64,000 bases of DNA from Rhina ancylostomus (GCA_030265395.1 JARFYF010000057.1:16836055-16900054); one strand, 5' to 3'; positions 1-61,931 are shown, counted from the first letter of the stretch. Notes: a model not told the origin generated them from the letters alone. Numbers and translations are program-made.

Positions 1-2440
1 CAAAAGCCATCTGGAAATTCATGCAACCACATCGACTGCATTACCCTCATCAAACTCTAACTATTCCCTACTTTTAAAAAAATCCATCAAATTAGTTAAA
101 CATGATTTGTCCTTAATAAATCAGTGTTGGCTCCAAATTCCTTAATGAATTCATCTTTTTTCAGGTAATGATCAATTCTATCCCAGATCAAGGTTTGTAA
201 AAGCTTTCTCATCTCTGAGGTTAAATTGACTGGCCTGTAGTTGCTGGTGTTAATTTTTTGAACAAGGAAGTAACCTTGCCACCCTCCAGTCTGCTGGTAC
301 CATACCTGTATCCAAACAGCATTGGAAGATTATGGTCAAGGCCCCACATGATTTTCTTCCCTCAGAACTATAGGGTACATCTCATCCCAATCTGATGACT
401 TTCCTGCATTAAGCTCATCCAACTTTTTTTAAAACAGCTCCATGTCATCAATTTTTAATATATCTGGTGTCCCAACTGTCTCTTTTTTCTCTATTATTTT
501 TAAAGCACCTCTTTCCTGGAGATGCAAGTTATTCATTTAGTACTTTAACGATGCCCCAGCATCCTTATGCAAATTCCAATTTATGTTCTCAAGAATCTCA
601 CTTCTTCATTACTTCCCTCTTATTATTTATATACAGACAGAACACTTCTGGATTCCCATTTATGTTAGCAGCTAACCTTTTCTCGTATGTTCTCTTTACC
701 CTTTGTATTTTACTTTTTACTTCCCCTCCAGTTCTTTTGGAATCAACTGGTTCTTGCTCACATTCACAAACCCATTACTTGTCTCAAACAGTCCTTTTCT
801 GCTTTAACCTTTTACTCTATTTTTTTTTTGTCATCCCTGGAACTCTGGGTATTTTTTTGTTTTTTTGCTTCTCATGGGAATGTGCTTCAATTGTACTAGA
901 ACCATCTCTTCCTTAAAAGCAGACTATTGTTTTGCTACAGTTTTGCTTGACTATTTTCAGTTCCAAATTACCTGGGCCAAATGTGCTTTATAGATTTGAA
1001 ATTGGCCATCTTCCCAATTATTTTGTTCTTTTCTTTAAACAAACCTAAATCTTATTATGCTATGATCACTAACTCCTCAATGTTCCATTGAGGCCCGCTG
1101 CATTTGCCTTAACTCATTCTTTACAACCAGATCTAGCAATACCCCCTTTCTTGTTGGACCAGAAATAGGCTACTCGAGAAAATTATCTTAGACACATTTT
1201 AGAAACTTCACATCTTCTCTGCCCTTAACACCACTTTCTCAATTTTCATTGGAATAACATATAATCCTGTACAATGCACAAAAAAACCAAACAGACAAAG
1301 GAGTTGCAGAGACAGTGGTCCCTTCGGAAAGTGAGCGGCAGGGGGTGAAGGGAAGATGTGCCTGGTGGCAAGATCCCGTTGGAGAGGGCGGAAATTGCAG
1401 AGAATAATGTGTTGGATACGGAGGCTCATGGGGTGAGGACAAGGGAAACCCTGTCCCTGTTATGTCGGCAGGGGGAGGGATGAGGGCAGACATGCAGGAA
1501 GTGGAGCAGATATGGGTAAGGGCAGCATTGATGGTGATGGAAGGGAAACCCCGGTCACTGAAAAAGGAGGACATCTCTGATGTCCTACAATGGAAAGCCT
1601 CATCATGGGAACAGATGCAGCGGAGGCGGAGGAACTGGGAGAAGGGGATGGTGTCCTTACAAGTGACAGGGTGGGAAGAGGTGTAGTCAAGGTAACTCTG
1701 GGAGTCAGTGGGTTTGTAGATGTCTATGGTCAATCTGTCTCCGGAGATGGAGACAGAGAATGTGTCTCCCTTCTGCACTTCTCTGTAATCTCTGTGCATA
1801 TTTGCTTGTGTATATTTCTCCCACCCATTGGTGACCTATAGAATACACCTAACATTGTAATGTTCTCCCAAATGTTTGTTAGCTTTAACCGAACAGATTC
1901 TCTCTTTGACACCTGTGCCATATTCTCTCTACAGCATTGTTATATTCTCTTTAATCAACCCTGCTGTCCTCGTTCCTTTCCTATCATTTCCAAACACTAT
2001 AACCATGAATATTTATGCCCTTTTTTGAGACAAATTTCTGTTATTGCCACCACATCACATTCCCATCTCAAATCCATAAGTCACAAACATTATTTACCAC
2101 ATTCCACGCATTCACTTACAAACATGGCAAATAAAATTTTGTAATTAATTCCACTTTCACTGACGCCCATGATTGTATGCTTTGCACCTTCCTGACCCAC
2201 TCTAGCTATTGTTGCCTTACACTATTGCATTTTCCTTCATTAATACCCCTTTCATCTGAACCTCCAATTCTGCTTCCAGATCAGTTTTTCTCCCTTCTGC
2301 TTCGACTGTCATGCACCCACCCACCCCTGCCAAACTAGTTAATATCAACATCAACCTCCTTTACAAGGACACTGTACTTTTGAGGTGCAACTTATCTCCC
2401 CCAGAAATGGCCCCAATTCCTCAGGAACACCCCCCAGCTA
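1..2440 (-). mobile_element. Decayed CR1-type LINE (endonuclease to RT region), interrupted by a Penelope fragment
   Basis: Minus-strand endonuclease remnant ITMLGVFYRSP (ORF 1730..1921) and CR1-like antisense RT sequence at 1-450. Confidence 0.7.
1292..1760 (-). mobile_element. Penelope-like element RT C-terminal fragment
   Basis: ORF 1239..1799 reads VSISGDRLTIDIYKPTDSQSYLDYTSSHPVTCKDTIPFSQFLRLRCICS...RGFP, the YxKPT...YL...SxHP...IPxSQFLRLRRICS motif of PLE reverse transcriptases. Confidence 0.85.
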
Positions 2441-20910: not shown

Positions 20911-22842
20911 ATCAATGACTCTATTCTGCTTGCTCACTTCTAAGCAGGAGTCAATAATCAAGGGAGGAACCTTTGATGACCTTCACCCTCCCTAGACTAG
21001 GCACCCCATCCAATCCAGCTAAATTGAGACAACTAAAACGTCAAGTCCCTGGTCTGCAAGTTCAACAACAGTGTCTTCATCAAATGCTTCAAAATGTTCT
21101 CACACTTAAAGTCAACACCAAAAGCAGCGATATGACAGCCATTTTAATGTAATCCATTCCACTGCTTGTGTGATTGACAGAAACAAAAATATGCATATTC
21201 TCAACATTATTTCTCCAANNNNNNNNNNACTATAAAATTCTTGCATGTCTACATACCAGAGCCTATCAGCACATCCACATGCCAAAATAAGGGATTCATT
21301 CTCTTGACCTACCACAAACTTTTTTAAATTAAAAATACTGCATATCACTGTGTATATGTAAAACAATTCTAAGGAAGGATGAAGAAACTCTTTTGGATAG
21401 AATTATTCCATTGGGGGTCATTAAATAACAAAAGGCTCAAATCAAGCAAGAATTGGAAGCCAGGAAGGCACATAAGAATAGGAAAAGAAAATCCCACAGC
21501 CACACTTCTCCAAATCACAATGTCATGTGAAATTATGCAATCTAACAGTTGCTTAAATAGGGAACTAGATTTATCAAAAGTACTTCATAATACTAAAAAA
21601 GAAAGTGAGTCATCTCATTGATATATTATTTCTCCAAAATTGGTTTCCTAAAACAAAAACAGGATCAGTCAATACAAGATGGTCACCAATAAAACTTTCC
21701 AATGCATTAAATAGTATATGGAACTCATTATCACAAGCAGTAATTGAGGTGCATTTCTGGATACCCCAAGGGAACATCAGATAAGCACACATGGAAGAAA
21801 GAAATAGGAGAACATATTTTGCAAACACTTTGTAAAAAACCATTTACAAACATTCCCTCCTCTGCATTTCAGATACAGAAGCAATCTTTCTTTAAATCTG
21901 TGATTGTTCTTTGTATGTGAATAAGACTAATAAATTATTTAATTTCCTATTATCAACAGATTCACTCAGAGCATTAAGAATCCATCAAGTCACACAGGAC
22001 TGAAGTCACAAGTAGGTAGAAACAAATTAAATTTTATTACAATCTGACAGCCCACAAATATAGATTCATTCAATTCAGTATTCATAATTCGCCATGCTGA
22101 TATCTAAGTTATTGATTCAATGCCTGTCAACCACAGGTCGTGCTGCACATCTGTTCGGGAATCCTCTGAACAAAAGCCCTGAGTAAGGCAATGGAGAGAA
22201 GTTTGCTTTAGTTGGATGATGCAGAAGATGATGGGGAAGGGTGGGCTGCTGAAAGAAAATAAATGTTTGGCTGAAAAAGAACTGAAAAAAATGTTTCCGG
22301 GTTGCTCCAGACCATCCAATTTAAATCACAGCTGCACCTGCAACTGTTCAGAATTCAGATTATTTTATTTCATAATGACTAAGAGTATGTAGCAATATAG
22401 AGAATTTAGAGAAAAAGAATCAGCTAGTCAATAACTTCCTTTAAAATTTTAACATTACAAATGTCAAATAATTTAGCCATTGTCCACCCAATCCACTGCT
22501 GCTGCCCTCACATTCCCTGCTTCCCCACTTCCCCACCACCACCTCAAACCTTTGAATTCTCAATGGGATCAAGTTCCTCAAATGAATTCAGACAGATGAC
22601 TTCTGTATTTATTTATACACACCATGAGGATTGTGGAGCGAGAGAAGGGCTAATGGAACTTAAAAAAAGTACCCAGTAATGTTTTTCCCCACCCATGTAC
22701 CCCAATGAGATCACAACTAACCTGTGACCTAACTCCATATATTCTATATCCCTTGGGTTCAAGTTCNNNNNNNNNNNNATAGGTATATATACACAGGGTA
22801 TAAATGCCATGAAAATTAGCTTTCTGCAGCAGCAGCACCGTA

Positions 22843-23483
22843 CAGGAAGTCCCCGGATTACAAACAAGTTCCGTTTTTGAGTCTGTTCATAAATCGAATT
22901 TGTATGCAAGTTGGAACAGTTCACATCTAGTGGCAATTAGTCAAACGTTTGTCTTAGTATATATTTTACCTAAAACATCATAATCTGTCACTCGCTACCT
23001 GGTGGGAATGGCAGCGGTCGATCTCCTAGTTGTTAACTCAGGTCCCGGATTGGTGTTAATTGGTTCCGTTTATTTCCCCAATTCTTTCCTCAGCATCACT
23101 TCTATTTGTTGTCTCACTGGATTTCTGGTTAAGGCAAGCATCGCAATCTCTGTATGGCTGATAGTCGTTTTCAGCTTTGATCGATTTGTGGCCATTTCTT
23201 GTAAGAAACTGAAAACAAAATATTGCACCAAGAGAATAACGGCTGAGGTTAAAGGGACAGTAAGTGTGCTGGGCTGTTCAGAGAGTGTCTCCTGGCACTT
23301 TAAATATGAACCCGGATACATAATTGACAATATTCCCTGGCTTTGTGCTGTTCAACGAAGTTTCTAAATGTCCTTTGCATGGATTGCATTTAACCTGTTT
23401 CACCTTGTTTTAACCCTGTGTACTGTTCTTTCTGATTTTGATGTTCAATGTTCTGACGATCAGACGTATATTAGCGGCTAGTA
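22843..23483 (+). mobile_element. Tigger-like non-autonomous transposon carrying a GPCR fragment, copy 1 (right part lost in a gap)
   Basis: TA|CAGGAAGTCCCCGGATTACAAAC TIR and a ~140-bp arm, followed by GPCR sequence up to the N gap at 23484. Confidence 0.8.
22984..23483 (+). pseudogene. GPR139/GPR142-like class A GPCR fragment (TM2-TM5)
   Basis: SVTRYLVGMAAVDLLVV...SVWLIVVFSFDRFVAISCKKLKTKYCT...IIDNIPWLC...F*, then after a frameshift LMFNVLTIRRILAAS. It has the DRF motif but no N-terminus or TM1. Confidence 0.85.
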
Positions 23484-23583
23484 NNNNNNNNNNNNNNNNN
23501 NNNNNNNNNNNNNNNNNNNNNNNNNNNNNNNNNNNNNNNNNNNNNNNNNNNNNNNNNNNNNNNNNNNNNNNNNNNNNNNNNNN

Positions 23584-23898
23584 TCTCACTCCACTGCCGG
23601 TTCCGAAGCTGCCCACTGGTTGTGGCAGTCTTTTTAAACTGTTCGCATGCTACCGACTGACGTCACGCGCCTGCACACTGACTCCCCGCTTTACACTGAC
23701 TCCCTGCTATCTCCGAAACCGTTAGAAGAGAAAAAAAATCACATCTCCTCAACTCCTCGGCTGCTTCCGTGCACTGGCTTCTCGCTCACGATCGAAACAC
23801 CAATGACTTCCCTGTTCTTTTTAAACTGTGTGTGCACTAACGACTGACATCACGCACCTGCACACTGACTCTCCGCTATCTCCGAAACTATTAGAAGA
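23584..23898 (-). repeat. CpG-rich tandem monomers (23630-23730 and 23817-23898), probable LINE 5' UTR/promoter
   Basis: ctttttaaactg...gactgacRtcacgcRcctgcacactgactc...ctatctccgaaac..ttagaaga occurs twice, 187 bp apart. TGACGTCA lies at 23658-23665. Confidence 0.55.
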
Positions 23899-24015
23899 AG
23901 AGACCTTGAAGAATCTATGTACTTGGACCCCAAGATCCCCCTGTTCCTCCACACTATAAGAATTCTACCATCAACCTTGTACTCTACCTTTATGTTCATT
24001 CTTCAAAGTGTATTA

Positions 24016-25419
24016 CAGGAAGTCCCTGGATTACAAACATGTTCCGTTGTTGAGTCTGTACGCAAATCAAATTTGTATGCAAGTCCAAACAGTTACGTAC
24101 AGTTCACAGCTAGCATCAATTAGTCAAATGTTTGTCTTTGTATATAGTATATACTTTACCTAAAATATCATAAGCTGTCACTGGCTACCTGGTGGGAATG
24201 GCAGCGGCTGATCTCCTGGTCATGATCTCATGTCCCAGATTGTGTTAATTGGTTCCGTTTATTTCCCTGATTCTTTTCCTCAGCATAACTCCTATTTGTT
24301 GTCTCATTGGATTTCTGATCAAGGCAAGCATCACAGTCTCTGTATGGCTGACAGTCATTTTCAGCTTTGATTGATTTGTGGCCATTTCTTGTGAGAAACT
24401 GAAAACAAAATATTGCACCAAGAGAACGATGGCTGCAGTTATAGGGACAGAGAGTGTCCCCTGGCACTTTAAATATGAACCCAGATACAGAATTGACAAT
24501 ATTCCTTGGCTTTGTGATGTTCGATGAAGTTTCTAAACATCCTTCACATGGATCGCATTCAACCTGTTTCACCTTGTTTTAACTCCTGTATGCCATTCTT
24601 TCCGATTTTGATGTTCAATGTTCTGAAGGTCAGATGTACATTAGTGGCTAGTAGAGTCCGCACAGGGCAGCAATGGACCCAGAGATTAAAAACCAAAGGA
24701 AATCCATCATTTTACTCTTCAGCATATCCAGTAGTTTCATACTGTTGTGGGTGATCTGGGTTGAGTATAACATAGTCACTGAATTATAAAATAAGAGGGA
24801 AATATTTGTCCAAAAAGGGGGCAAGATGTCGTTAGACGGAAGGTCGTAGATTATGTGGATCTCCCTGTTAAGAATGAAGGAAACAGTGGAACGGATAGAT
24901 GAATAGAGACCGTAACTGAGGAGAGGTGTTCCCTCTGGAAAAGACTAGTGCCAGCAAAATTCATCATGACTTCATGCTTGCAGTTTGTTGTGATTCTGTG
25001 ATTGACGATAATGTTGAACATTTGGCTTGGTGAAACAATGAGACCAGAAGGTAATGTTAAATGAGCGTAAAGGAGAACAATGTTTTTTGTGGGTCCGATG
25101 TCATTTGTGGGGAAAGGTCAACAGCGTAATACACCAGGGGTGCGAGGGGAGGGGGATGTGGAGAAGTTTTTACGTGTCCTGAAAGTGACGTGGAATTATT
25201 TCACATAGAATACGAAGCTATGAAATACATAGTTCGTCCTCGGGCCGACGAAACGCTTAAAACGCGCAGTGTTTTGAGTGTCGCACAAAGTAGTCCACTC
25301 ATTCGTTGTTACGAACTATTATGTGTAACTTGATTTTTTTTTACAATAATACATTATGGAGGTCAGTTCATAAGTATGGACATTTGTACGTTGAGCGTTC
25401 ATAACCTGGGGACTTCCTG
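24016..25419 (+). mobile_element. Tigger-like non-autonomous transposon carrying a GPCR fragment, copy 2 (complete, 1404 bp)
   Basis: Left end TA|CAGGAAGTCCCTGGATTACAAAC and right end GTTCATAACCTGGGGACTTCCTG|TA. The imperfect TIRs are ~23 bp, the target duplication is TA, and there is no transposase ORF. Confidence 0.88.
24174..24778 (+). pseudogene. GPR139/GPR142-like class A GPCR fragment (TM2-TM6)
   Basis: Paralogous to 22984-23483 with extra lesions (DRF>D*F, ~21-nt deletion). It extends to DPEIKNQRKSIILLFSISSSFILLWVIWV (ICL3-TM6). Confidence 0.85.
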
Positions 25420-25424
25420 TACAT

Positions 25425-58720: not shown

Positions 58721-61382
58721 TTACTTACATCAAGTTTTGACAGTGAAAATGTCACAATCTTACCTGTGATCAAAGAGAAAGTCTTCATTTGGGAACAAGA
58801 TNNNNNNNNNNAAGGACAACTACCAGCAATGGAATTAGATAGGTATTCTCCCCCGACTATAAACAGCCATCTTAGTAACCCATATTTTGCATGAATCCTT
58901 TGCTTGATTTGAACACCATGCACCTAAAGCATTTTATTCTATTCAGCCTTTTCATTTCAATAAGTGATATAGGAGTGCAAATTCATTTGCTGTATATACT
59001 ATGAAGCCATAATCTTAGAAGACTACATCAATGTAAATAGATCACCAACTCAAACATTTAGTCCATATCATAAAGAACAAATTTCTATCTTGAACTATTT
59101 GCAGCCTGTGCAGTAAAACTCACTCAAGGGGCTCTCCTTGCCTCCCATATTCATTCAATGGAATGTTTTTGATTGAAAATCCCACTTGTTCATACCTACC
59201 CACACCCCCCACCACCACCTCTCCCACCCCCCCATCCCAAATAAAAGCCCCCGATGCTAAGGCTGCTTCTTTTAAGGAGATGGAGCTGCCCAAGGGATTC
59301 CCAATGCCTGTTAGCAGTCTAATGGGCATGGCAGCAAGCTTGCTGAGTACTTAACTTTTGTTTTTTTAAAAACTTTCTCTGTGAACTTCCTAATTAAATT
59401 ATCTGTAATCCTTAGTGTCACACCTGCGGGAGTGGCTGGGGTGCTGGGGGTTGTGCACAGCATGCTGAGAACCACTTTGTTAAATAATTATAGTTGTATC
59501 TCTACAAAACAGGAACCCAACTGAGAGCAAGAGGCAGTCTAACTCTGGAGCCAGGCCCCAATCCATTTCTGACATACTCACATAATAGCACGAGGGTTTT
59601 GATTTTCCAGTTGTGCACAGAAAACAATTCCAACAAGGTACTTCTAGGATTTGAAGTTCTCAGAGTCCACCTGGGCCTTCAAAAGAACTTCCTTACCACA
59701 TTCCTTTCCTATCCAACCCTAAATAAAAGCATTGCTGAGGGTGTGGAACATCTGCCCACGTTCCTAAAATTTATCACAGATTAAACAGGTCATTCATGCT
59801 AACTCTCAAGACAAAGAACTGCAGTGGAACCCTGCAGACTGAGGAATACACAAAACTAACTACAGATCTAAATTCAAGAATTTTAGGAATTTCAGTGATC
59901 TTTTAAAAATTGCAGGTTTTTTTCCCGTGACTGATCTCCACCCAGAGTAGAACTAACAATAATCTGAAACTATTACTGTGATATCATTAAAAGAATTCAC
60001 TAGTTTAAAACTATCAATATCAAATAAAGCAACCCTGCTTTAATTGACAGCACATGGATAATCTGCCTTTAATTTCCTTTGTTGAGACAGCCTTCCCTGT
60101 CTCCATGGGTCTTTGCATTATATGCTATTCAAGCTATATACGTGGCTTAAAAAAATCTAGCCCATCAGTTGAACACATTATTATATGGTTACATAAACCT
60201 CACAAACTGAAAGACATACAAGAAATCACGTGCACCATTGACTGAATAACAGTTTACAATCGCAGCTAAATCCTCACAAACTAAACTGCTTCCAAATAGA
60301 GATGGGGGCTTTTTATCCACCTCCTCTTCCCCACCCATCCAAACACTGCAAGTGCCACATGATATGCAAGACACAGCCAGTCCCAGCTCTCCACCTCCAC
60401 AAATATTACATCAACAACATTTTTATAAAAAAAACTTGAGTGCCAGAATAGCAACAAAAATAGATCACTGCAGACTGATATTTGCAAGACGTTCTAAAGG
60501 ATCCTTTCCCAAAGGCTTTGCTCCCTGGAGATGGCACTTTCAATGGGCTCGAGAGCAGGCACATGTATGGAATTCAATAAGTTTGTGAAATGTGTGTATT
60601 TTAAAAACTTAAGTTTATAAAGTGCCCAGGAAACTTAGTAACGGCAGCCCAGCACTTTTAACATGGCTCGATTTTGCACTTGAGCAATAACTCACTGCTG
60701 TCTGTCCCAGTTGGTACAGGGATCTCATGCTGCTGAGATCTGGACTCTGATCAAGCCATGAATCTAAAGCTGTGCTGCCACTTTTATGCAGCCATGAAAT
60801 CAATTTCAAAACCAACAGCATTGTTACACACTTAATCAACAATGGTTCCTTAAAACTACTGTAGCACAGAGTCAGCTTGCTCAATTCATAGCACTCTCAC
60901 CACAGTCAAACAGCCTGGGGACTTCCAAAGTACCAGTGCACAATGCTACCGCAGTCCTTAAGGTGAAGGTGTTCCTTTGGTGATCTTAAGACAAAGTTCC
61001 AAAACATGACCCATCCACAATAAAGAGAATAACAATCCATATCATAATCAGGAATGGGGTGCAAATTGGAGGTAAACATAGGGATTGTGATATGTCCATG
61101 GACCGGTTGCATTTGAACCCCTTGGTTGTGGAGGTTAAGCATTTGAAGTTTAATGTAGCACATCTTGCAGATCATGCACAGAATACCCAGCTCTACCCAT
61201 ATTTTACCCATGTCTGACCTGTTCTGGCAACCACATTTATGCAGTTGATCTAGGAAAAACAGCATCTACAAAGGATCAAACAGGATCCTGCAAGAATTGC
61301 ACTCACAGATTTGAACATACTTTCANNNNNNNNNNATTCAGAAAAAGCCCTCAATAACCCCAAACTCTTCAGTCAATCCTAC

Positions 61383-61931
61383 CTCTTTGGCAATGTTCAC
61401 TCGTCCAGCATCTGTGGTTAAACTGATCATTGAAGACAGTCTGGGGACAGTTGGTCTTCCCTTTCAGTGTGCCTGGGCACACATTGCCACATTCTCTGTC
61501 ATCTTTATTGGATTTGATGTAATTATCCTCCACTGAGTCGAGAATCTTTGACCAGTCGAGCGTCGACAGATAGCAAAGCTCTGGGTTCTTTTCAATTCGT
61601 ACAGCACCCCGGGTGATGTTCACCAAGTTGTACAGGCCAATTTCTTTGAAGTGCAGCATCTCAAAGATGACCAGCGCATAGTTGAAGAAGAGACGTGTCC
61701 CTCGAATCACAGTCAAGTTTGGGAAGAGATCTTTCAAGCTTTCCAGGCCATAGACACGAAACAGAAGCAAGTAATCAGTTATCATGGTGAGTTCTGGAAA
61801 GCTCAGACCACGGAAATCCTCAGATTTTGTGCCAAACATCAGCAGGATCTGCAGACTTCCCTCGATAACAGTGCAGTTCCTTAGTCGTTCCAAGTGCGTG
61901 ATGTTGTTTCGAATATCTATGCTTTGACAAA
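61383..61931 (-). CDS. INSR: Insulin receptor internal coding exon (exon 2 equivalent): L1 domain and start of the furin-like cysteine-rich region
   Basis: Acceptor ttttccatctttctcatag|TT TGT CAA at 61932/61931 and donor CAA AGA G|gtagga at 61383/61382. The exon is 549 nt, phase 1-1. It translates [32 protein letters not shown]...[23 protein letters not shown]...[11 protein letters not shown]...[31 protein letters not shown]...[14 protein letters not shown] (Phe39), FRVYG and [15 protein letters not shown] favour INSR over IGF1R or INSRR. Confidence 0.95.

Follow-up and report, generated by a model that had tools for sequence, protein, structure and literature searches.

Among animal transposons with terminal inverted repeats (TIRs), documented cases in which a captured gene sequence was then truly transposed number only a handful (PMC8277862). 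A survey of 100 animal genomes counts 370 Pack-TIRs, among which only four families are multicopy, namely the vertebrate hAT-N8_XT, hAT-N14_XT, Kolobok-1N3_XT, and hAT-N9_Gav, the fly Ssk-FB4 family having been reassigned to MULE (PMC8277862). In the accessible sections of this survey, none of the multicopy cases belongs to the Tc1/mariner-pogo group or stems from a cartilaginous fish, and the elephant shark is given with zero Pack-TIRs (PMC8277862). Tigger arms around captured DNA are found in the gibbon Pack-Tigger1, a single copy that arose via gap filling in a resident element (PMC8277862), and multicopy, non-autonomous elements with multi-locus mosaic cargo and closely spaced direct copies are described from plants as Pack-MULEs and Pack-CACTA elements (PMC6379663, PMC8277862). 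Tigger elements proper carry a transposase and belong to the pogo superfamily, with a TA target, TIRs of under 40 bp, CENP-B_N, HTH_Tnp_Tc5 and DDE_1 domains, a 2.2-kb parent and a catalytic triad in the DD29-56D range, DD32 occurring in Tigger-derived genes (PMC7386202).

The element described here was found in a window of 64 kb (C57:16,836,055-16,900,054 of a gapped 2.2-Gb assembly, the receptor genes of which match shark and ray proteins) and is a multicopy Pack-TIR that belongs to the pogo/Tigger group and stems from a cartilaginous fish, a kind that is known but rare. Very probably, a Tigger chimera formed once and was subsequently moved by transposition as a functionless passenger. As in the animal multicopy Pack-TIRs, host DNA is enclosed by TIR arms at separate target sites on several chromosomes far from the donor region, outgroup orthologous sites are empty, and the FoSTeST model fits; in contrast to these, none of which is assigned to Tc1/mariner or pogo in the sections accessible, the present element is a pogo/Tigger, and its cargo of about 1,060 bp (survey median 224) includes coding sequence, consists of two pieces and exists in at least six copies (PMC8277862). 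The element shows the features of multicopy Pack-TIRs except for an identified parent and readable breakpoint microhomology, and with the donor missing the survey pipeline, which requires a parent, would likely not call the element (PMC8277862). This suggests that animal Pack elements are undercounted wherever a survey depends on an identifiable parent together with a consensus from a repeat library. Unlike the gibbon Pack-Tigger1, the chimera has moved repeatedly (PMC8277862), and it differs from the plant Pack-MULEs and Pack-CACTA elements in its TA target, short TIR, DD32D parent, vertebrate host and a family long inactive, with copies about 11% apart (PMC6379663, PMC8277862). New is that a pogo/Tigger element occurs as a multicopy Pack element, its cargo combining coding and upstream pieces that stem from a receptor cluster. 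In the open-licence literature searched, no description of this element, of Pack elements in sharks and rays or of the GPR139-like expansion was found, and the accessible part of PMC13317346 uses neither 'Pack-TIR' nor 'mariner'.

The complete copy in the window (copy 2; 24016-25419, minus strand with reference to the parent's transposase) is 1,404 bp long, starts with CAGGAAGTCCC at 24016 and finishes with GGGACTTCCTG at 25419, with the TA target-site duplication read directly from the sequence on the left (24014-24015) and the right (25420-25421). Its TIR is perfect over 11 bp and imperfect over about 23 bp, with about 80% complementarity across 25 nt if the TA is counted, and the exact TIR 11-mers occur in the window only at 22843, 24016, and 25409. 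Full-length relatives on C84, C94, and C2 show an identity of 80-84% with gaps. The left 158 bp (24016-24173, minus strand) represent Tigger arm and TIR at 86-89% identity to many cargo-free copies, and are followed by a broken GPR139-like coding fragment (24174-24775, plus strand), a second captured piece (24777-25231, plus strand) and, as deduced from cargo-free copies and full-length parents, the other arm with its TIR (25232-25419, minus strand; about 188 bp), which corresponds to the parent's 5' end upstream of the transposase start. Transposase sequence is not present inside copy 2, only the arms matching the full-length parents. Hence, the initial annotation was right in describing an element with TIRs, TA at both ends and no transposase (the transposase being a part of the described Tigger family; PMC7386202) and in placing the receptor fragment about 150 bp inside the left end, the actual distance being 158 bp. 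The left end corresponds to the parent's 3' end, with the transposase on the minus strand, and the reported receptor fragment is not the entire content, as the second captured piece and the breakage of the cargo before its spread had been overlooked.

Likewise, the second copy predicted at 22843 (copy 1) exists, with 88.8% identity to copy 2 over 22843-23483, the same junction between arm and receptor fragment and a different left flank. It follows a TA target site (22841-22842, sequence read) and comprises Tigger arm and TIR (22843-22983, minus strand; assigned by the TIR and alignment to copy 2) as well as the GPR139-like fragment (22984-23483, plus strand), before entering an assembly gap (23484-23583) so that its right end falls beyond the visible sequence. 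Both window copies have the same direction and are spaced by about 1.2 kb plus the N gap. The 430 bp after the gap (23584-24013) were considered as the missing end of copy 1 and rejected, as they gave no match. Besides, diverged direct repeats (62 and 37 nt; 84-89%) are found between gap and copy 2 at 23629-23729 and 23816-23898; these belong to another dispersed repeat which is present in the sequencing runs too.

Arms of this type are common to many cargo-free copies at 85-89% identity, some of which retain a partial transposase on the minus strand. Two full-length parents of about 2.2 kb (L279 and L280) share both arms at 69-83% and encode a protein with CENP-B_N and HTH_Tnp_Tc5 above cut-off and DDE_1 at E=1.9e-36. 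From L280, a DD32D catalytic triad can be read, in which 32 residues separate the second Asp from the third. TA flanks on both sides were found in all four complete chimeric copies and a single TA in the empty allele. With TA target, short TIRs, these domains and this DDxD spacing, the parent family shows the features of the pogo superfamily. The name Tigger, as opposed to pogoR, Passer and others, is our assignment, presumed from the likeness to Tigger1 together with the DD32 spacing. The cargo is oriented antisense to the parent's transposase. L279 and L280 match only the first 118 of the 158 bases of the left arm and end in CAGGCAG, so that the immediate arm donor should be a derived subfamily. 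A 2.2-kb DD32D parent of the family, the search for which the initial annotation had proposed, is present in the genome; with arms matching over 118 of 158 bases and this different end, L279 and L280 need not represent the exact mobilising subfamily.

The first cargo piece (24174-24775) derives from the second exon of a receptor gene with two exons and extends from about TM2 to TM6. For the 127-aa frame of copy 1, the Pfam 7tm_1 model gives E=2e-6 at 27.9 bits, which is below the curated cut-off of 30.5 because this frame is a fragment. The cargo peptide is up to 64% identical to shark and ray proteins labelled 'probable GPR139', an automatic label of the databases, and a free gene of the same genome (L013) reaches 70-76% to proteins of this label with 2,507 matches. 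In a tree of the six cargo copies and 34 free genes, a comparison proposed in the initial annotation, the cargo forms a single clade (support 100) within the group termed A-type. The cargo copies are mutually 87-91% identical in a nearly star-like tree, each about 5-7% from the common ancestor, whereas identity to the free genes is only about 73%. At DNA level, no close donor of piece 1 was found in the gapped assembly, the best of 40 scored among 468 candidates showing 74-75%.

Free GPR139-like genes are clustered (L067, L093-L132; C62, C70, C71, C72, C76, C79, C55, C56, and others), have two exons, fall into at least two subfamilies and are in many cases broken, with most of 20 A-type exons being interrupted. 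B-type genes have in common a conserved block that lies upstream and is about 1.5 kb long. Tigger arms were detected in none of 41 cluster stretches (405 kb), hence this element does not account for the GPR139-like expansion. The idea that some annotated GPR139-like models represent such cargo is not supported, since none of these cluster stretches bears an arm, the free genes are two-exon genes and the cargo peptide finds no match above 64% identity among database proteins of 224-2000 aa.

The second cargo piece is absent from the full-length parents and, over its length, occurs only in the four complete chimeric copies (all seven candidates scored). Weak matches led to the conserved block mentioned above, mostly located on receptor-cluster contigs, where a same-strand receptor exon follows downstream in 13 of 21 block-bearing stretches; in 10 of 12 stretches examined, the distance from the block start to exon 1 is 1.1-1.3 kb. 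An nhmmer profile built from 11 blocks, excluding piece 2, matches the latter end to end (89.9 bits, E=6.6e-27), thus establishing it as a homologue of the non-coding block upstream of B-type GPR139-like exon 1, with individual blocks being just 63-78% identical in short stretches. B-type genes are only 49-57% identical to the coding piece of the cargo and represent a different subfamily, and by blastn and nhmmer the block was found near A-type genes in none of 20 stretches. Hence, judging from these alignments, the cargo is likely a mosaic from two loci, joined in the reverse of gene order. As non-coding upstream DNA placed after the coding piece, piece 2 points to capture from DNA and not from mRNA. 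An assignment of piece 2 to Tigger-internal sequence or to another transposase was also considered and rejected, as neither a match to the parents nor an open frame common to the four copies was found. On a contig from organism E (run X7, record 27; L003 2293-2508), piece 2 starts at its left boundary behind 244 unrelated letters, making this sequence a candidate for a block donor or a variant element. Moreover, 46 bp of piece 2 are present at 89-91% identity beside a gap on C2 (76.81 Mb; L036/L070, L070 6888-6933), 25 kb from the C2 copy, possibly representing a seventh copy or a donor.

A rather unlikely, albeit tenable, course is capture in one piece, coding fragment and upstream block having already been joined in a cluster pseudogene the donor locus of which is now lost or unassembled. 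The cargo was broken already on its stem, dN/dS from cargo to free genes is 0.34-0.55, compared with 0.24-0.39 when free paralogues are set against each other (stops being present in two of these five), and the clusters are rich in pseudogenes, as the interrupted A-type exons illustrate, all of which would suit such a source. Against it, the seven candidates scored for piece 2 yielded this piece over its length in the four complete chimeras only, and the contig from organism E with its 244 unrelated letters better fits a separate donor.

We prefer a capture at DNA level in which two pieces of GPR139-like cluster DNA were likely caught in a Tigger by template switching during repair or replication, requiring either two switches or one switch and a deletion of tens of kilobases in the receptor cluster. 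A transposase of the family, likely supplied in trans, would then have moved the chimera to six or more TA sites, with the two window copies resulting from a local hop. This capture route is proposed with less confidence than the overall account. At the left junction, microhomology amounts to at most about 3 nt (AAT) as measured against paralogues, a value that is not reliably readable given best paralogues at 74-75%, block homologues at 63-78% and a direct donor not found. A cargo-free deletion derivative (L017 near 1500; C52:41.89 Mb) breaks at the very point of the arm where the receptor chimera breaks too, which may indicate a fragile site.

Improbable in our view, and differing from template switching only in the origin of the chimera, is a twin insertion as described for Arabidopsis Pack-CACTA elements (PMC6379663), i.e. 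two Tiggers inserted in the same direction into one cluster, followed by loss of the inner ends, shortening of the intervening DNA and transposition of the hybrid. Local hopping is suggested by the same-direction window copies with their spacing of about 1.2 kb plus gap (chance 1e-4 to 1e-5), and A-type genes are located upstream of same-strand blocks at distances of 57-165 kb on C79, C70, and C62. But the 41 cluster stretches are without any Tigger arm, the route would call for two insertions, the loss of two ends and a large deletion, and the L017 break at the same arm position is in line with a fragile site and template switching. Close relatives may still hold the donor, making the choice between template switching and twin insertion testable.

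Whatever the capture route, the cargo appears to have been dead before it spread. An in-frame TAA (24534-24536 in copy 2, plus strand; 23365-23367 in copy 1) is shared by all six cargo copies and an 11-bp frameshift deletion (near 24665) by all five copies reaching this position, neither being present in 34 aligned free genes, and further private stops are found in five of the six copies. Among substitutions since amplification, 150 of 223 are non-synonymous, in agreement with an expected fraction of 0.68 under the observed mutation spectrum (p=0.77); the plain Nei-Gojobori-type dN/dS of the tip branches is 0.63 and reaches neutrality only once the richness in transitions of this spectrum is taken into account. 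Arm and cargo have diverged alike, by about 11-12% between copies. With shared stop and frameshift and neutral later changes, the cargo is likely a passenger that was dead before spreading and is functionless; the find is limited accordingly to a dead passenger, with no new gene or function shown. Highly improbable is thus a functional cargo, acting as truncated receptor or as antisense RNA versus GPR139-like genes and expressed from a Tigger promoter or within insulin-receptor pre-mRNA. The cargo is indeed antisense with respect to the transposase of the parent as well as the insulin-receptor gene around it, and some animal Pack-TIRs are transcribed (PMC8277862), but the shared and private lesions together with the neutral decay speak against a function, an identity of only about 73% to the free genes is poor for pairing, and presence of the element differs between related organisms.

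Transposition of the chimera as a unit, as had been proposed in the initial annotation, is supported by several lines of evidence. The junction between arm and receptor fragment is present at six places on four contigs (two on C57, one each on C84 and C94, two on C2), these counts being lower bounds in view of the gapped assembly. Complete copies, each with its two TIRs and a TA at either end, number four (window copy 2, L002, L003, and L004), and L006 has right TIR and TA, its left end lying in a gap, as well as an internal deletion. Among ten flanks, no similarity was detected at E<1e-3. Non-transposon sequence is enclosed by both arms, and the same chimera occupies several independent target sites. 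At C84, the element splits a LINE-like repeat, the paralogues of which (L071 and L117) run uninterrupted across that site. Random insertion would bring two of six copies as close as those in the window with a probability of the order of 1e-4 to 1e-5 only, so that the pair is likely due to an early local hop and the family likely hops locally. Arm identity is 88.5% among cargo copies versus 89.6% among cargo-free copies; capture thus occurred while the family was active.

Direct evidence comes from the C94 site in related organisms. Such a control, with the orthologous position occupied in one close relative and vacant in others, is not usually available. In organism B, flank, TIR and receptor junction are covered by one contig of run X2 (L003 1050-1848, 35 differences), whereas in X4 (organism D) and X7 (organism E) the flanks are joined, skipping 1,429 bases with six letters including one TA in between. 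Over four runs, the site is hence filled in one and empty in two, X3 being without left-flank coverage, and the chimera must have arrived by transposition; at this one site examined, a cargo-free element is likewise absent in organisms D and E. For window copy 2, another X2 contig spans 23903-24271, i.e. flank, TIR and junction, with 21 differences, the orthology call being weaker here since the bridged flank includes a high-copy repeat. Organism E also has a contig across the junction of pieces 1 and 2, and organism D pieces of both cargos. As both carry chimera sequence and an empty C94 site, the chimera likely predates their split and then kept moving, or was sorted differently. Local segmental duplication and mis-assembly, which the initial annotation had named as outcomes that would refute it, are excluded. 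Adjacency, common direction and the intervening N gap of the window copies might suggest a duplication, be it segmental or in tandem, or two haplotypes wrongly assembled, but this is of negligible probability, as homology ends at the TA, flanks are unrelated, four more copies lie on three other contigs and the C94 site is empty in relatives. In the tree, copy 2 groups with a C2 copy (support 99) and not with its neighbour, excluding recent tandem duplication and two haplotypes.

The wider family was sampled by examining 30 of 33 exact TIR-pattern matches, a sample that favours copies with a well-kept TIR. It comprises 15 plain deletion derivatives, five copies with a GC-rich internal tandem repeat, one with a U2-headed retroelement-like insert, three affected by gaps and six belonging to multicopy lineages with non-Tigger interiors (one receptor, one Y, and four W). 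Lineage W, found at 14 places (L207, L208, L216, L217, L220-L237), has an interior that is partly another high-copy repeat, a 56-aa frame without Pfam family or homologue and one arm-free match of 113 bp at C104:10.15 Mb (L238, 91%). Lineage Y, found at 16 places (L023 1503-2932 at C52:91.78 Mb, L134-L144, L250-L266), has a mosaic non-Tigger interior. A Y-related branch bears an extra piece with one arm-free match at C56:20.377 Mb (L170 3332-4020; 78% with gaps, the 358 columns including 36 mismatched and 43 gapped ones), located upstream of an open frame that has a signal-peptide-like start and was not assigned to any Pfam family. No donor was found for W or for most of Y, and both contain stretches that are fragments of other repeats; hence, captured gene DNA is shown for the receptor lineage only. 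Copies of the Y-related branch are interrupted by an LTR-retrotransposon-like insert (L136, C84:30.57 Mb) or by shorter inserts (L134, C7:57.22 Mb). The copies with GC-rich tandem-repeat interior and variable copy number (L192, L194, L196, L199, and L211) form a MITE subfamily of the same Tigger. In L193 (about 1575-2280), the insert shows coding-like sequence after its 5' piece, the latter resembling, as we take it, U2 snRNA as in U2-associated non-LTR elements.

Both window copies reside in a single intron. An insulin-receptor exon encoding the L1 domain is located at 61378-61908 (minus strand; E=1e-101 to insulin receptor), and the next exon, encoding the cysteine-rich region (L276, about 1460-1730, minus strand), lies about 38 kb before the window start. 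These consecutive exons are about 100 kb apart and their intron covers most of the window, thus holding both element copies with the cargo antisense to the host gene. At 1239-1835 (minus strand), the window additionally contains a 198-aa frame which resembles the C-terminal part of a Penelope-type reverse transcriptase.
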